Shown one piece after another: positions 1 to 8,688 of a stretch of 13,195 nucleotides of DNA (its first letter is position 1; every line of letters starts with the position of its first letter). This DNA is from Anneissia japonica (Eukaryota). The position numbers and the translations under genes are program-made. The stretch is from positions 64,001-77,195 of the forward strand of contig NW_022715116.1 of assembly GCF_011630105.1 (NCBI RefSeq). Direction: 5' to 3'. The notes beneath the pieces are model-generated. The model did not search any database and was not told the DNA's origin. It saw only the letters and a program-made list of their open reading frames with translations.

Positions 1-190
1 CGTAGGACGCGTTATGAATGACAAAATATTCTCTGTATCTACTGGAACCGAGCCACATAGCTTGTATTCCACTATTTGCATTCACACCTGGGCTGTGTAT
101 ATTGCCTTGGTTTGGCTCTGTAATCGTCAGTGGTCGTGGGACTAGTTTGGGCCCTACCTAAGCTGGTCGAACGTTTAGTTTCGGTCTATA

Positions 191-248
191 CCCTAGCTGC
201 ACTGATGAGGCCTGGAAGGCCGAAACGGATCCGTCTGCAGATATTGGG
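191..248 (+). ncRNA. Type I hammerhead self-cleaving ribozyme motif (helix I open-ended), predicted cleavage 3' of C235
   Basis: Seen directly in sequence. Helix I 5' strand is cTGCA (197-201). Core is CUGAUGA (202-208). Helix II is GGCC/GGCC (209-212 and 218-221) with loop UGGAA. Then GAAA (222-225), followed by C226, the palindromic helix III CGGAUCCG (226-233) and the cleavage-site U234 C235. Helix I 3' strand UGCAG (236-240) is the exact complement of 197-201, with a further possible ccc/ggg extension at 191-193 and 246-248. Every conserved hammerhead core nucleotide is present in the correct order for the type I topology. The very short palindromic helix III is typical of metazoan genomic hammerheads found in Penelope-like elements, retrozymes and satellite transcripts. 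Confidence 0.75.
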
Positions 249-464
249 ATTCCTTCCAGTGGATGCTAGTTAATTTTGTCATTCTTGTTCCGTTTTAATT
301 TTAAATAGTTTTGCATTATGTGGCCGTTTGCTGTTTTATGGGTTTTTCCCATTTGCCTTTTAAAATTTATATATTATTAAAGAATCTCTATTGATTTTCT
401 CTACTGTTCCGTTTTAATTTTATATATACATCTAGATGTTATATATATCATATCATAAGTATTT

Positions 465-667: not shown

Positions 668-987
668 TTAATTGATGAAACAATACAAGTTAAACAACAA
701 ACTTTGTTTAGAATATTAAAACTTTGTATTATGACGAACGTGCAATATGATCTAATAACAAGGAGAAAATAAAACACTAATAAAAATTTTAAACATCAAT
801 ACTGTATTAATTATTTGGGGGAAATAGATTTAAAAACAGTTTTAATGTGGACATATTTGATTTGTAAATAAAGTGCATGTAATACTGACACCATATACAA
901 AAAATAAACGATTGCATATGTTGACATAATAGAGAATAACATTTACTGTGTGTTCTTAAAGCATTAAACAAACTTCAGAAAAATTAC

Positions 988-1757
988 CTGAAAAGGAGTT
1001 TTTCAGTCGGAGTGAACATTGCTGCTGTCAGTTTATTTGCTAAGCCTAAATTACCCACGTGTCCATAGTATGCAGAGCAGGGCAAGTCCTTAGGTTTCAT
1101 ACAAAACCATGGCTCTCCGGTTATTTTATCAGTGTAGTTGCATAATTCATTTGCAGTCGAAAGTTGCACATGGCATAGTACTTTTCTTTTTGTTTTACGG
1201 AGTTGAAATATCCCAGTGTATGTCATTCGAATCGGATTGGTTTCACGTACACGTTGCATAGCTGCAATTGCCTCACTACTATGTACCAGTTGTACATTGA
1301 TAGTCACAAAACCACTCCATCTCAGTGTAAAATATGCGCTATATGAACCGTTGTTGTGATCAACTACTTCCCCATCTGTAGGCGCACTTGCTTTTAATGT
1401 TGTAGAGAATATTTTGGCGCGAAAATAATCACCTCCTATTTGCTTATTAGTGTTAAACTGGTCACGTGCTTGAATTATTACGTGGATCTTGTCGCATATA
1501 TTATACGAGATTTGCTGATTTTCAATACTGAAAGTACAATGTTTAGGGTCTGTAATGTGCTGGGTTTTTTTAATGTCCCGGTAGACGTCTGTTAAATTCA
1601 GGATCGATTCATTTTGATGAAGTGCTGATGATGTCAACGTTGGTACAATGCGTGAATAATTTCCGTACTTTCTTTTGCCAGAATGATTGTTGATATTATG
1701 GTGAATATGCTTATATCCAGCAATTTTCGGTAGAGTACTGCGATAATCAAATTTTTT
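988..1757 (-). CDS. Internal coding exon of an NXPE-family gene (neurexophilin and PC-esterase domain family), covering the N-terminal neurexophilin-like domain
   Basis: On the minus strand the frame is open from 1763 down to 988. The ORF-track 'M' at 1637 is a TTG, not an ATG; the frame simply continues upstream. Translation is KKFDYRSTLPKIAGYKH...SILNLTDVYRDI...YNICDKIHVIIQARDQFNTNKQIGGDYFRAKIFSTTLKASAPTDGEVVDHNNGSYSAYFTLRWSGFVTINVQLVHSSEAIAAMQRVRETNPIRMTY...LCNYTDKITGEPWFCMKPKDLPCSAYYGH...LTAAMF. I recognise this as collinear with the conserved block of vertebrate NXPE proteins (pattern: YGGDYLQARIHS...VVDYQNGFY..FTLLWPG...LVHPSEGI...[24 protein letters not shown]...LLTAAES). The exon is bounded by a canonical acceptor (minus strand tttttgatttCAG|AAA, AG at 1759-1758) and a canonical donor (minus strand TTCAG|GTAATT, GT at 987-986). 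No in-frame ATG start and no stop are present, so this is an internal exon. Further exons should lie beyond 1760 (5' side) and below 988 (3' side, the PC-esterase part). Confidence 0.7.
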
Positions 1758-2118: not shown

Positions 2119-2156
2119 CTGTCTCTTATACACATCTAGATGTGTATAAGAGACAG
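2119..2156. other. Illumina Nextera mate-pair junction adapter (Tn5 mosaic end CTGTCTCTTATACACATCT plus its reverse complement AGATGTGTATAAGAGACAG); library-derived contaminant and assembly artefact
   Basis: Perfect 38/38 match to the circularisation junction adapter. The 32 bp immediately to its left (2087-2118, caatgggtctaaatgaaacattcctgtaatgc) are identical to 3717-3748, which lies inside the satellite array. Confidence 0.95.
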
Positions 2157-2813
2157 GACTACGTGTGTGCACACAGTGTTACAGTGGAATATGTAATTAT
2201 AGTCAGGTTCTAAAAGGACACTATAAAGTAGATGCCAAAGGAGACATTATTTTATAAAGACAATTGCCTGAATCCTTCAGTAAATAGGGCCTACATATTA
2301 TCATCACTTCCATCAACGTCGTCGCCACTGCCGTTGTCATTGTCATTATCGTCAAGATTTTATTTAGATAGGATATTATCTTTTAGCTAAACAGATGGGT
2401 TTTTTTTCATATATTTGAAATTATTTTGCTAATCATTAGCTTACCAAGAAACACTATGGATATATATCCAACATGCCGTTCGTTGTGCATTACGAAAGCA
2501 AGACTGTAAGCAAGACTGACATGGAGGAAAACTAATTCCTCCATGTTTACGGTTAGGGTCTAGGAAGCTCCACCAATCAACATCCTCGGATTAACTTAAG
2601 TTTGTCGGAACAATTTCCACGGCCAAGAAAATTGTACTTATACCCATTAAATTTCTTGCCGCAATTTAATGATTTTTGTTGTAAAACGTCTTTAAATAAC
2701 TGAACATTATTTCTTTTTTATCTGTAGCATAAATACAATTTTTAAAGTTTTATATTTATTTTTTTCCCTTTCGCACGTTAGTTATTTTTTGTGGCAATAC
2801 AGCAGCAGAAGTA

Positions 2814-3078
2814 CAATTTGCATATGTATGTTATGTTAAGCAAATAAATAACGACACGTTATAGGCGACAAGATAGTATAGTAACCGAAAGGTCCACTGA
2901 TTAATCTCAGATAAGATAGTATAATACATACTCCTAGTATCAAAATGCACGCCATCGTGTCGGGATTCAACGGGATTCAATATTGAATCCCGATACGATG
3001 GCGTGCATTTCGATAATTGGAGTATGTATTATACTATCTTATCTGAGATTAATCGGTGGAACTTTCGGTTATAGGCGA
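2814..3078. mobile_element. Foldback / MITE-like repeat, copy 2 (full-length hairpin with ~95-bp arms)
   Basis: The leader at 2814-2890 matches 465-540. The left arm 2883-2980 (taaccgaaaggtccactgattaatctcagataagatagtataatacatactcc...gggattcaa) is the near-perfect reverse complement of the right arm 2984-3071 (ttgaatccc...ggagtatgtattatactatcttatctgagattaatcggtggaactttcggtta). 'ttataggcgac' occurs directly before the hairpin (2859-2870) and 'taggcgac' directly after it (3071-3078). Confidence 0.65.
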
Positions 3079-3523: not shown

Positions 3524-4324
3524 GTGAGGACCAATTAAAGTGATTTAAGGTCAAACAGTCAACACCGGATATTCCAAAAACCGGTCAGTTGATGTGAATG
3601 AAAAGTTTAATCAAGGAAGACGTTTTTATGCGTTAGTGGCGATCCAGTGAAGGGTGTAAATTGGAGGGTCTTTTCAATTTTTCAGGACCCAGACCTAAAT
3701 ATCTCTTTAAAAAAAACAATGGGTCTAAATGAAACATTCCTGTAATGCTTTGTAAAGGTCTTGTAAAAAATAATTAAATTTTTGTGGCGATCTCCAGTAT
3801 GGTGTGGATCTGAGGACCATTTAAAGGAAAACGTCCCAGACCACATATTTCGAAAACGGATCAACTGATCTGAATGGAACTTTCGGAAAAAGTTTAACCA
3901 AGTTACAGGGAAGAATTATTGTGTGCTGGAGATGAATCAGTCAAGGTTGTAAATGGGAGGGTTATTTTAATGTTTGAGGACCCAGACCTATCTCTTAAAA
4001 AAAAATCAATGGGTATACTTTAAACCTTGTATAACAGTTTGTCAAGGTCGAGTAAAGAAATTATTAAATTTTAGTGACGATCCGGGCAGGGAACAGTGTA
4101 ATTTCACTGTTCGCTGATCCGGGGTAGGGTGTAGTGAGGACCATTGAAAGGAAAACGTCCCAGACCACATTATTTCGAAAACGGATCAAATGATTTGAAT
4201 GAAACATTCGAAAAAATTTAACCAAGTTACAAGGAAGATAGTATTATGTGCTGGCGACGAATCAGTCGAGGGTGTACATTGGAGGGTCATTAAATTTTTT
4301 TTAGATCCCAGACGTAAATATCAT
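3524..4324. repeat. Satellite-like tandem repeat, ~2.6 copies of a ~300-320-bp unit, each unit made of two related ~150-bp sub-units
   Basis: Unit starts are gtgaggacca(a/t)t(t/g)aaag at 3524, 3812 and 4134. Recurrent blocks within units include 'gaggacccagacct...aaaaaaaa(t)caatgggt', 'gtggcgatcc' and 'ggagggtc'. Homology decays at ~4324. Confidence 0.8.
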
Positions 4325-4899: not shown

Positions 4900-5252
4900 T
4901 AACCGTGTACACAAAGCGACTTGGCCTAATTTCTAAATCCAAAGAAAAATGTAAAAAAACAAAAAAAACAAAACAAAAAAAAAACAACTTAATTTTCAAT
5001 TCTTTCTAACCTTAAGATTTAATTGTTTTTAACTCACATCAAATATGTTCACTGGAATTAGTAAACATTTCTGTAACACCATCAAAAGAACGACAGCGCA
5101 AATTAGGAAACAAAATATAGTACGGAAATTCAGATATCTTTGTTGATGCATTGTTGACGTTTGCTCGAAAGTCGTGTTCAATAATTATAAGAATATTCTC
5201 TTCTTCGGTGGTATCGCAGTGTTCAATTATACATGTATTACGTGTTACGCGT
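4900..5252 (+). repeat. Dispersed repeat of unknown family, copy A (~350 bp), homologous to 12540-12829
   Basis: aagcgacttggcctaatttctaaatccaaagaaaaatgtaaaaaaa ... aactcacatcaaatatgttcactgg...gaacgacagcgcaaattaggaaacaaaata..gtacggaaattcagat...ttgttgatgcattgttgac...ggtatcgcagtgt...catgtattacgtg is ~80% identical to the block at 12540-12829, in the same orientation. Confidence 0.7.
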
Positions 5253-5569: not shown

Positions 5570-5650
5570 ATTGAAAAATATGACACACAAGCGGCCGATG
5601 TTCGTCGGCCGGCGCGATTCCATGACGACCGCAACGCGACAAGGCGCGGG
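5570..5650. repeat. GC-rich conserved block, copy 2 (homologous to 1826-1900)
   Basis: acacaagcggccgatgttcgtcggccggcgcgattccatgacgaccgcaacgcgacaaggcgcgggc versus 1826-1900. It lies within the minus-strand ORF 5498-5872, which has no recognisable protein similarity. Confidence 0.45.
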
Positions 5651-6344: not shown

Positions 6345-7083
6345 ATGAGCCATACCAGAAGCCAGACACAAGATCAACAGGCTATTGCAAAACAACAACA
6401 GGCTATCGCAAAACATGTGGTAGTCGAATTGTTGTCTAGCGTGGATTTTAAAAATGTTTTAAAAAGCCATATTGAAGAGGCATTTGCAAGCCCAGCTGTA
6501 TTGAAACAACTTGGCGTTCTTATTAGTAAGCAAATAACTCCAATAGCGGGATGACATCCATTCACTCACCGTCCAAGTTAATAAACTACAAGTGAGTGAA
6601 GACAGCATTATTGATAGGCTTACCGATATTGAAACGTCGATGGACGAACTAGAACTATATAGCCGGAGAAATTGTCTTCGTTTTTTCGGCATTGAAGGAC
6701 AGACCTCTGAGAATACGGATAGTGTCATCATTAAATTGGTTAACTCTGATTTGGATATCAATCTTACTCTAGACGACATTGATAGATCTCACCGTATTGG
6801 AAAGCAGATGGCAGGCAAAGCAAGGCCCATTATCGTGAAGTTTTGCCGCTATCACAAACGCAATGAAATTATTAAGGCTAGAAAAAAACTAAAAGGTACT
6901 CGTAGATCAATCCAGGAAGATCTCACAAGATATCGACGAGACTTAATAATTGCACTCAAAAAGAAGGAATGTGTTACAGCTTCGTGGTCAATCGATGGTC
7001 GTATCTACGCAGCGATTCGTGAGCAAAACGGCAAAGAAAATATGAAAAGAATTATATCCTTGGACGATATTAGGAAACTATAG
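6345..7083 (+). pseudogene. LINE ORF1 (L1-type ORF1p: coiled-coil plus RRM/Transposase_22-like plus CTD) with one frameshift near 6547-6554
   Basis: The N-terminal part (6345-6554) is glutamine- and alanine-rich and coiled-coil-like. After a 1-bp frame change the reading continues ...DDIHSLTVQVNKLQVSEDSIIDRL..ELYSRRNCLRFFGIEGQTSENTDSVIIKLVN...IDRSHRIGKQMAGKARPIIVKFCRYHKRNEIIKARKKLKGTRRSIQEDLTRYRRDLIIALKKKE...WSIDGRIYAAIREQNGKENMKRIISLDDIRKL. The patterns SRRNNLRI.GI.E, ..AHR.G.....RPII.KF and EDL are the L1 ORF1p RRM/CTD signature. The ORF-track 'M' at 6592 is a GTG. Confidence 0.65.
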
Positions 7084-7796: not shown

Positions 7797-8688
7797 TTGT
7801 GTTTCAATCCATTTGATATTGATCTTGAGCATTCTAATTCAAACAATAATTTCCTTTTTCCAGATAATAATTACGCATGTAACTACAATTTCATTGACTC
7901 CTTTAATCAGAATTATTCAAATGAAGATTACTCATTTAGCATATTCAATTTAAATACCAGAAGTTTAGTAAAACACTTTGACGAAGTAAATGACTACTTG
8001 GATCTTCTTAAGCACAAATTTTCAGCTTTATGTTTTACAGAAACTTTCTTTAATGAAAACTCAACAAATTATTCTTTTTATCATATTCCTGGTTATAATC
8101 TTATTCATAATTCTAGAAATCAGAGAAAAGGTGGAGGTGTGGCTAAACACGTTATATCGTCATTGCGGACTTATAAAATCCGCATACGCTATAAAACTAA
8201 AAGAAAATGCATACTTTTGGAGTCCGTACTGAGCCCAAAAAATCCGCAATGAAAATATAAAGTATCTTTTTAGAAATAAATTATCAACCTAAAAACATAA
8301 TTCTCGGAGCTATATATCGTTTAGGAGAATTCCCCATCAACTTATTTAGTAGTAACGTCTCTCAAATTCTTCATATTATTAATAGGGAAAATAAGATTGC
8401 GTATCTCGCTGGAGACTTCAATATTAACCTCTTAAACTGCACAGACAATCAAATATCAGAATTTATTAATATAATGTTTAACTCAAATGTTTATCCTCTA
8501 GCAACGAAATCCACGCGAATAACAACAAAAACAGCTACACTTATTGATAACGTATTTACAAATAACATTTTAGACAAAATCTCCCCTGGTATTTTAGTGT
8601 CCGATATATCTGATCATTATCCCATATTTTTTCTTAATACATAATAATAGATTCCAAATATCTAAACCAGCTATAAATAAAAATTCCG

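Follow-up and report, generated by a model that had tools for sequence, protein, structure and literature searches.

A probable retrozyme-borne type I hammerhead ribozyme in the crinoid Anneissia japonica

The analysis concerned a DNA stretch of 13,195 nt from the crinoid Anneissia japonica (NCBI RefSeq assembly GCF_011630105.1, contig NW_022715116.1, positions 64,001–77,195 of the forward strand), hereafter the window, numbered from its first letter, and in particular its positions 191–248, where an earlier note made from the letters had described a hammerhead ribozyme motif. It was concluded that the motif at 197–240 of the plus strand is probably a genuine canonical type I hammerhead ribozyme, situated in a self-paired copy, about 269 nt long, of a metazoan retrozyme of the group without long terminal repeats (non-LTR retrozymes). 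These non-autonomous retroelements are thought to be mobilised by Penelope-like elements (PLEs). An element of this kind is already known from corals, mussels and salamanders, whereas the host lineage is apparently undescribed.

The letters of 191–248 read CCCUAG-CUGCA-CUGAUGA-GGCC-UGGAA-GGCC-GAAA-CGGAUCCG-U-C-UGCAG-AUAUUGGG, which is the order of a type I hammerhead, and the ribozyme was intact at 197–240, with all 13 core positions and every helix pair present (Table 1). The conserved core and the three helices, of which helix I is open and helices II and III are loop-closed, were found both in the descriptor scan and in the covariance-model match given below. The core elements listed in the earlier note (CUGAUGA, GAAA, the A15.1–U16.1 pair and C17 at 235) were all found where it had placed them; its 5-bp helix I (CUGCA/UGCAG) and 4-bp helix II (GGCC/GGCC) were confirmed in the sequence, and the palindromic helix III that it had proposed proved to lie within the 10-nt palindrome ACGGAUCCGU. 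The A15.1–U16.1 pair is formed by positions 225 and 234, which flank CGGAUCCG (226–233). Canonical metazoan type I hammerheads have a helix I of 6 bp, a helix II of 4 bp and a helix III with a stem of 1–2 bp and a palindromic loop of 2–4 nt (PMC4209133); in the window motif, helix II has 4 bp, helix III consists of the A–U pair, 2 bp and the palindromic tetraloop GAUC, and helix I is one base pair short. The internal loop UAG/AUAUU in helix I is closed by the stem CCC (191–193)/GGG (246–248). As regards the loop 1–loop 2 contacts of natural type I motifs, this internal loop is present, and loop 2 (UGGAA) resembles the coral AGAAA.

Chance is no serious explanation for the motif. The partial pattern CTGATGA-N6-30-GAAAC had 0.05 expected occurrences in the window. 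A strict descriptor (helix I of at least 5 bp, helix II of at least 4 bp, helix III with the A–U pair plus at least 2 bp, and H17) gave one match when both strands of the window were scanned, namely the 197–240 motif, and 0 matches in 30 Mb of first-order Markov sequence of window composition, in which a relaxed descriptor gave nine. According to the analytic estimate, the strict descriptor was expected at about 1e-8 per position and about 2.5e-4 per window.

The covariance model R1 was constructed with the type I structure from the coral, mussel and axolotl retrozyme ribozymes only, all of them cloned and tested in vitro (PMC7229834); the window sequence was excluded, and the window was searched together with three other loci, the filters being switched off. 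The model matched window positions 195–242 (+) over its full length (49.2 bits, E~1.8e-12), with the next best match at 14.8 bits. In the alignment of the window motif with the three tested ribozymes, 96.4% of cells were in standard pairs, as against 23–40% in slid controls; this level was reached in 0 of 500 shuffles, and six pairs were changed on both sides.

Cervera & de la Pena (2020) cloned four retrozymes and assayed them in vitro, and the constructs are given in their supplement (PMC7229834). The closest relative of window positions 197–243 (40 of 47 nucleotides identical, 85%) was the Amil224 ribozyme of Acropora millepora, which reads CUGCA-CUGAUGA-GGCC-AGAAA-GGCC-GAAA-CAGUACUG-UC-UGCAG (PMC7229834), and a single genomic copy of the Amil224 retrozyme is reported to self-cleave efficiently, with a kobs of ~0.8 per min (PMC7229834). 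Helix I (CUGCA/UGCAG) and the GGCC/GGCC stem of helix II are identical in both, loop 2 has five nucleotides of the form N-G-R-A-A, and helix III follows the same plan, an A–U pair plus 2 bp and a palindromic tetraloop inside a 10-nt palindrome; two double compensatory changes (G–C to A–U and A–U to U–A) separate the two helices, and the palindrome is kept. Both ribozymes also belong to a short, non-coding and highly self-paired unit (224 nt in the coral, ~269 nt in the window). They differ in helix I (6 bp in the coral, 5 bp in the window), in organisation (the coral unit forms tandem arrays, whereas a single copy is visible in the window), in the predicted rod that blocks the ribozyme in the window unit, and in the host phylum (cnidarian versus echinoderm). 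On the identity to a ribozyme reported to cleave, self-cleavage is predicted, and the motif is probably active.

Other known hammerheads share parts of this design. Those of newt/axolotl satellite-2 and Schistosoma Sm-alpha are likewise of type I, with a 4-bp helix II, a short helix III through whose palindromic loop double-hammerhead dimers can form, and a repeat some hundreds of nucleotides long as carrier; the amphibian motifs, however, have a weaker helix III (1–2 bp) and need dimers for good activity, whereas the window motif represents the sturdier ‘invertebrate’ form. The minimal hammerheads of the pseudo-LTRs (pLTRs) of PLEs (PMC4209133) resemble it in their type I topology and palindromic 15.2–16.2 region, are likewise associated with retroelements and are often found dispersed and singly, but their helix II of 6–8 bp, the bulged base after A9, the absence of loop 3 and the short helix I are all missing from the window motif, which has a helix II of 4–5 bp, no bulge and a tetraloop. 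In plant LTR retrozymes and hammerhead viroids, a rod-shaped RNA pairs the ribozyme boxes with the opposing strand, so that cleavage takes place only during transcription, as the window unit may also do; these elements nevertheless carry type III hammerheads, and plant retrozymes are further equipped with LTRs, a primer-binding site and a polypurine tract; nothing of this applies to the window unit. The amniote hammerheads HH9 and HH10 (Rfam RF02275 and RF02277) share the type I form, a position near a host exon and a CUGCAG-like helix I, but they are conserved single-copy host elements in sense orientation, whereas the window motif is antisense.

The ribozyme lies in a unit distinguished from its surroundings by composition and fold. 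The GC content was ~48% over 1–260 and dropped to ~25% beyond ~270. The plus-strand RNA of 1–300 folded at −114.7 kcal/mol (z = −7.05) and the minus-strand RNA at −75.4 kcal/mol (z = −1.96), a strand difference that arises because 16 of the 107 pairs of the 1–300 fold are G–U. As background, all 300-nt segments of the window were folded for each strand (86 folds); the 1–300 segment ranked lowest in energy and in z and differed most between its strands; the nearest in z was a palindromic element at 458–670 resembling a miniature inverted-repeat transposable element (MITE), but there the strong fold was found on both strands. Within 16–284, 73% of the bases were paired, and the interior 48–253 alone gave z = −3.3, with z = −3.7 for the coral comparator retrozyme. 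No open reading frame (ORF) was found in the unit, stop codons being present in all six frames, and no tRNA-like features or features of short interspersed nuclear elements were found there. Metazoan non-LTR retrozymes are described as non-coding repeats of 150–450 bp with a GC content below 50%, whose RNAs of 170–400 nt are highly self-paired (PMC7229834). The unit matches this description, since it is non-coding, has less than 50% GC, is ~269 nt long, is highly self-paired in the polarity of the ribozyme and contains a canonical type I hammerhead. A MITE reading of the 12-bp terminal inverted repeat was considered and rejected as the principal one, given the absence of a visible target-site duplication and the strongly strand-specific pairing via G–U. 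The earlier note suggested that the carrier may continue upstream of position 1; this is probably not needed, as the unit closes upon itself at 16–284, inside the window. There may be a tandem neighbour to its left.

The minimum-free-energy fold of the unit is a predicted rod, where an opposing ‘anti-hammerhead’ strand pairs with the ribozyme boxes and blocks the ribozyme. Positions 124–132 pair with CACUGAUGA (200–208), 117–121 with ACGGA (225–229), and 73–80 with UGCAGAUA (236–243), and the helix II hairpin is the only part common to the rod and the active fold. In the majority of metazoan retrozyme circles the ribozyme is reported to stay free, and it is in plant retrozymes, viroids and some mussel copies that it is typically blocked (PMC7229834). 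If the rod prediction is right, cleavage would have to be co-transcriptional and precede synthesis of the 3' closing strands.

The isolated helix III hairpin had a folding energy of 0 kcal/mol, i.e., no predicted stability, and the monomer hammerhead fold (−16.1 kcal/mol) was slightly worse than an alternative fold (−17.6 kcal/mol). The ACGGAUCCGU duplex gave −16.6 kcal/mol, corresponding in a dimer to a 10-bp intermolecular helix III, and the minimum-free-energy fold of two copies (−48.8 kcal/mol versus 2 × −17.6 kcal/mol) was a double hammerhead joined in this way. The helix III stem has a G–C pair in the window where the coral has A–U. Invertebrate motifs whose helix III has a 2-bp stem and a tetraloop are reported to be effective in single copy, in contrast to those of amphibians (PMC7229834). 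The dimeric cleavage envisaged in the earlier note therefore agrees with the predicted dimer fold but is not required, as Amil224, with the same helix III design, cleaves from a single-copy construct (PMC7229834). Judging from these models, dimerisation is plausibly an option rather than a requirement.

For the mechanism, the anatomy was read from the sequence, and the chemistry and life cycle were taken over from the family. If the plus strand is transcribed, the hammerhead would fold co-transcriptionally, either alone by means of its 3-bp/tetraloop helix III or as a double hammerhead joined through ACGGAUCCGU, and the cut between C235 and U236 would yield ends with a 2',3'-cyclic phosphate and a 5'-OH. 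Where units stand in tandem, a pair of cuts would free a unit-length RNA, which an RtcB-type tRNA ligase would circularise; this RNA would then adopt the more stable rod, with the catalytic boxes paired with 117–132 and 73–80, and the circle would serve as a template for the PLE reverse transcriptase. By the same reasoning, a locus with one ribozyme in reach would produce one cut and no circle by itself. Most probably the copy stands alone and is a dead end; failing that, it would close an array starting upstream of the window.

Several observations weigh against the assignment to a retrozyme. Tandem organisation defines retrozymes, and pattern searches, BLAST, repeat finders and the covariance model revealed no second ribozyme in the window, nor was any tandem repeat of the unit visible. 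No other copies of the unit were found in the metagenome and viral DNA collections scanned, and it is by the ribozyme and the fold, not by a repeat family, that the unit is assigned to retrozymes. The coral retrozyme and the window unit had no similarity outside the ribozyme, and part of the likeness to the coral motif may be convergent, since many phage hammerheads that are not related share the GGCC/GGCC helix II: with a looser pattern for helix II, more than 120 phage hammerheads were retrieved from the viral collection. No target-site duplication was seen. Helix I has 5 bp against the canonical 6, with G196 and A241 unpaired, and the fold forced to contain the hammerhead (−101.5 kcal/mol) costs 13 kcal/mol relative to the blocked rod (−114.7 kcal/mol). 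Furthermore, a search of the whole window with Rfam 15 gave no match at the gathering score.

The absence of an Rfam match above threshold had been named in the earlier note as one outcome that would overturn its identification, and formally this is the outcome obtained: the best score was 22.2 bits (Hammerhead_3) against a gathering score of 48.5. Under permissive thresholds, the region matched hammerhead families only, all of them far under gathering, with RAGATH-1-hammerhead at 20.3 bits (gathering 56.3) and Hammerhead_HH9, the best clan match in the search of the 58-nt segment, at 17.6 bits (gathering 52); the score of RF00163 was hidden by clan competition. The Rfam gathering score is a curators' threshold and not a biochemical criterion, and the failure was taken as non-decisive because the core is intact and R1 scores the motif at 49 bits. 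In practice, short metazoan hammerheads of this class escape the gathering thresholds of Rfam, but the motif is found cleanly with a small model made from tested retrozyme ribozymes.

Regarding further copies, no direct repeat was found inside 1–285; since nothing in this segment is repeated, any tandem unit would be at least ~270 nt long and its ribozyme would lie to the left of position 1. The window contains 196 nt upstream of the motif, and positions 1–15 do not repeat 270–284, which speaks against a neighbour with the same boundaries. Dispersed monomer copies of retrozymes are common in Xenopus, and ~44% of copies are intronic (bioRxiv 10.64898/2026.07.22.740005). The motif scan of the metagenome collection gave one match, an unrelated prokaryote-type hammerhead between ORFs in locus L001; the specific motif pattern gave no match in the viral collection, and a six-frame pseudo-protein query of 1–297, directed at spurious ORFs on sister copies, gave none either. 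In the searchable literature there was no occurrence of the exact motif sequence and no report of crinoid or echinoderm hammerheads. The L001 hammerhead (metagenome contig Ga0310786_10059013, positions 2713–2753), of prokaryote or phage style, shares the GAAACGGAUCCGUC half with the window motif, and a GGAUCCGUC segment is repeated directly after it.

The PLE coding fragment described in the earlier note is real. It comprises a GIY-YIG endonuclease fragment at 10445–10870 (−) that shares 52% identity with P0002, the GIY-YIG endonuclease ORF of locus L003, in the part C-terminal to the GIY-YIG match of P0002, and it was taken as co-occurrence of autonomous PLEs in the genome. The fragment lies 10 kb from the ribozyme on the opposite strand, amid fragments resembling a long interspersed nuclear element (LINE), and an adapter remnant interrupts its 3' flank 22 nt past the stop. 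Its nearest relative (locus L003) carries, 40 nt after the P0002 stop codon, the minimal hammerhead CUGACGA-A-GACUAC-AGUUU-GUAGUC-GAAA-CG-UA. This motif (722–775 of the ENA metagenome contig k141_20776) is a textbook minimal PLE hammerhead, with CUGACGA, a bulged A, a 6-bp helix II and GAAACGUA; the window motif, unlike it, has no adjacent PLE ORF. Because the nearest relative carries this different, minimal hammerhead, the PLE fragment was read as a possible mobilising partner (helper) of the ribozyme unit and not as its carrier. The carrier from the PLE and retrozyme world proposed in the earlier note is supported, and the form of the motif, its identity to the coral ribozyme, the R1 match and the fold narrow it to a retrozyme.

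To the right of the unit lies an NXPE-like exon with a neurexophilin domain, whose sole database match was the Anneissia japonica NXPE3-like protein (74% identity). The ribozyme is antisense to this exon and is located ~750 nt beyond its splice donor, and no further NXPE exon was found downstream in the window. Because of this orientation, the NXPE pre-mRNA would carry the complement of the ribozyme, and the ribozyme is a passenger insertion, not a device acting on the NXPE pre-mRNA. The earlier note's placement of the motif in an NXPE intron is accordingly unproven: the motif is on the opposite strand, the window holds no downstream exon, and an adapter remnant (428–439) intervenes. Provided that the assembly is right, the motif is better described as close to an NXPE-like exon and on its opposite strand. 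The inserted 38-nt sequence, of which the full copy stands at 2119–2156, is presumably the Nextera/Tn5 mate-pair junction adapter; its 12-nt core occurs three times in the window versus 0.00 expected. An exact 32-nt duplicate (2087–2118 = 3717–3748) was observed immediately to the left of the full adapter, and a 22-nt near-duplicate (286–307/405–426) immediately to the left of the adapter core at 428–439; such duplicates are consistent with read-through of mate-pair fragments in gap filling. The three adapter remnants, two of them with abutting duplicated segments, mark chimeric or gap-filled joins in the assembly, and one such join separates the ribozyme unit from the exon.

The explanations competing with a retrozyme copy concern the carrier, the authenticity of the motif and the integrity of the assembly. 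One of them, which is unlikely, would make the ribozyme the pLTR hammerhead at the 3' terminus of a PLE, 5'-truncated or full, whose coding body lies upstream of the window. Canonical PLEs do carry a hammerhead near the 3' end, within the pLTRs (PMC8557442), PLE-type motifs mostly occur singly and stem from truncated elements (PMC4209133), a relation of retrozymes to pLTRs has been reported (bioRxiv 10.64898/2026.07.22.740005), and ~45 nt separate the motif from the right edge of a block richer in GC that begins at or before position 1, in a window that does contain a PLE endonuclease fragment. However, metazoan PLE hammerheads, including that of L003, are typically minimal, with a helix II of 6–8 bp, a bulged base and no loop 3 (PMC4209133), whereas the window motif has the canonical 4-bp helix II and tetraloop helix III, and for Acropora, retrozymes are given as the bearers of the canonical family, and PLEs or Terminons as those of all minimal families (PMC7229834, legend of Fig. 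S1). No coding remnant was found in the 196 nt upstream of the motif, all three plus frames of 1–196 containing stops; the unit closes upon itself at 16–27/273–284, and the PLE fragment of the window is distant and on the other strand. Very improbable is a chance consensus match or a decayed, inactive relic: the Rfam result would agree with it, as would the fold of the isolated 58-nt segment, which was no better than shuffles (z −0.65) with a minimum-free-energy structure other than a hammerhead, and the lack of predicted stability of the monomer helix III hairpin. Opposed to it are the 0 strict matches in 30 Mb of random sequence, the 49.2 bits obtained with an independent model, the intact core positions and helix pairs, the 85% identity to a ribozyme shown to self-cleave and the location of the motif inside a strand-specific structured unit.

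As for the assembly, it is possible, if on balance doubtful, that segment 1–427 was misplaced, in which case the ribozyme would be real and its NXPE neighbourhood, distance and orientation would not be as shown. Three adapter remnants (428–439, 2119–2156 and 10405–10423) in 13 kb versus 0 expected, with duplicates abutting them (32 nt at the full copy and 22 nt at the first), point in this direction, but nothing in 1–404 looks disrupted. Mate-pair chimeras join points a few kilobases apart in one genome, so that even then the ribozyme would still lie near this locus. Scarcely credible is a host-exapted intronic ribozyme processing the NXPE-like pre-mRNA in the manner of amniote HH9/HH10: the position downstream of the splice donor and the HH9 clan match, with its similar helix I, are what recommends it, whereas the pre-mRNA would hold the complement, without a hammerhead, the HH9 score was 17.6 bits against a threshold of 52, and the window contains no downstream exon and an adapter-marked join between motif and exon. 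Under the preferred reading of a retrozyme copy, it is quite unlikely that the unit represents the first described crinoid or echinoderm retrozyme family with a locked rod of the viroid or plant type and genomic ends at the 12-bp rod-closing inverted repeat; if true, ends at this repeat would hint that integration starts and ends in the terminal loop of the RNA, or that a hairpin-ended copy moves as DNA.

The locus adds a well-formed and, judged by its sequence, probably active hammerhead with its carrier to the catalogue of animal retrozymes, and the appropriate label for genome annotation is that of a repeat-borne ribozyme lying antisense to an NXPE-like gene, not that of a gene-regulatory element. 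Thousands of such motifs are known per invertebrate genome, and no new question is opened by this one.

Table 1. Coordinates of the ribozyme, its carrier unit and the neighbouring features in the window.
Feature	Position	Strand	Remarks
Retrozyme-like non-coding unit, ~269 nt	16–284	+	carries the ribozyme
Terminal closing stem, 5' arm GAAUGACAAAAU	16–27	+	pairs with 273–284; 12/12 perfect inverted repeat; in minimum-free-energy fold
Second closing stem, 5' arm	35–47	+	pairs with 254–266; 13 bp including two G–U
‘Anti-hammerhead’ strand	117–132	+	pairs with ribozyme boxes in rod-like fold (minimum-free-energy pair table)
Outer stem CCC (191–193) and internal loop 1, 5' side UAG (194–196)	191–196	+	
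Helix I, 5' strand CUGCA	197–201	+	pairs with 236–240; helix open
Catalytic box C3–A9, CUGAUGA	202–208	+	
Helix II hairpin GGCC-UGGAA-GGCC	209–221	+	4 bp, or 5 with U213–A217; loop-closed; G10.1–C11.1 intact
Helix II strands GGCC(U) and (A)GGCC	209–213 with 217–221	+	
Catalytic box G12 A13 A14 plus A15.1, GAAA	222–225	+	
Helix III, 10-nt palindrome ACGGAUCCGU	225–234	+	monomer: A–U, C–G and G–C pairs plus tetraloop GAUC
Predicted cleavage site, C17 (235)/U1.1 (236)	235–236	+	from position in motif
Helix I, 3' strand UGCAG	236–240	+	pairs with 197–201
Internal loop 1, 3' side AUAUU (241–245) and outer stem GGG (246–248)	241–248	+	
Second closing stem, 3' arm	254–266	+	pairs with 35–47
Terminal closing stem, 3' arm AUUUUGUCAUUC	273–284	+	pairs with 16–27
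Adapter core ACATCTAGATGT	428–439	.	between ribozyme unit and NXPE exon; suspect assembly join
NXPE-like exon (neurexophilin domain)	987–1637	-	Pfam Neurexophilin, E=2.7e-23; ends in AG/GTAAT splice donor
Full 38-nt adapter CTGTCTCTTATACACATCTAGATGTGTATAAGAGACAG	2119–2156		
Adapter remnant, partial	10405–10423		

Other repeats were also observed in the window. The MITE-like element was present in two copies (458–670 and 2807–3072, 92–97% identical), each a long, nearly perfect hairpin with arms of ~90 nt that are 93–96% complementary, the left arm being shortened in the 458–670 copy; it folds strongly on both strands (z −4.4/−7.1). A satellite-like repeat at 3623–4315 consisted of about three tandem units of ~293–325 nt, with 65–97% identity between parts. 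The plus-strand ORF fragments at 6592–7083, 7797–8252, 9342–9803 and 11092–11397 resemble a decayed non-LTR (LINE-type) retrotransposon, and among them a Pfam match was obtained in 9342–9803 only (RVT_1, E=7e-14). A dispersed repeat was found at 5014–5243 and 12592–12822 (77–85% identity, ~7.6 kb apart), and an imperfect (TAT)n/(TTA)n microsatellite of ~330 nt at 11738–12067. A GC-rich segment of 56 nt occurred at 1824–1879 and 5585–5640 with 82% identity, one copy lying just upstream of the NXPE-like exon.

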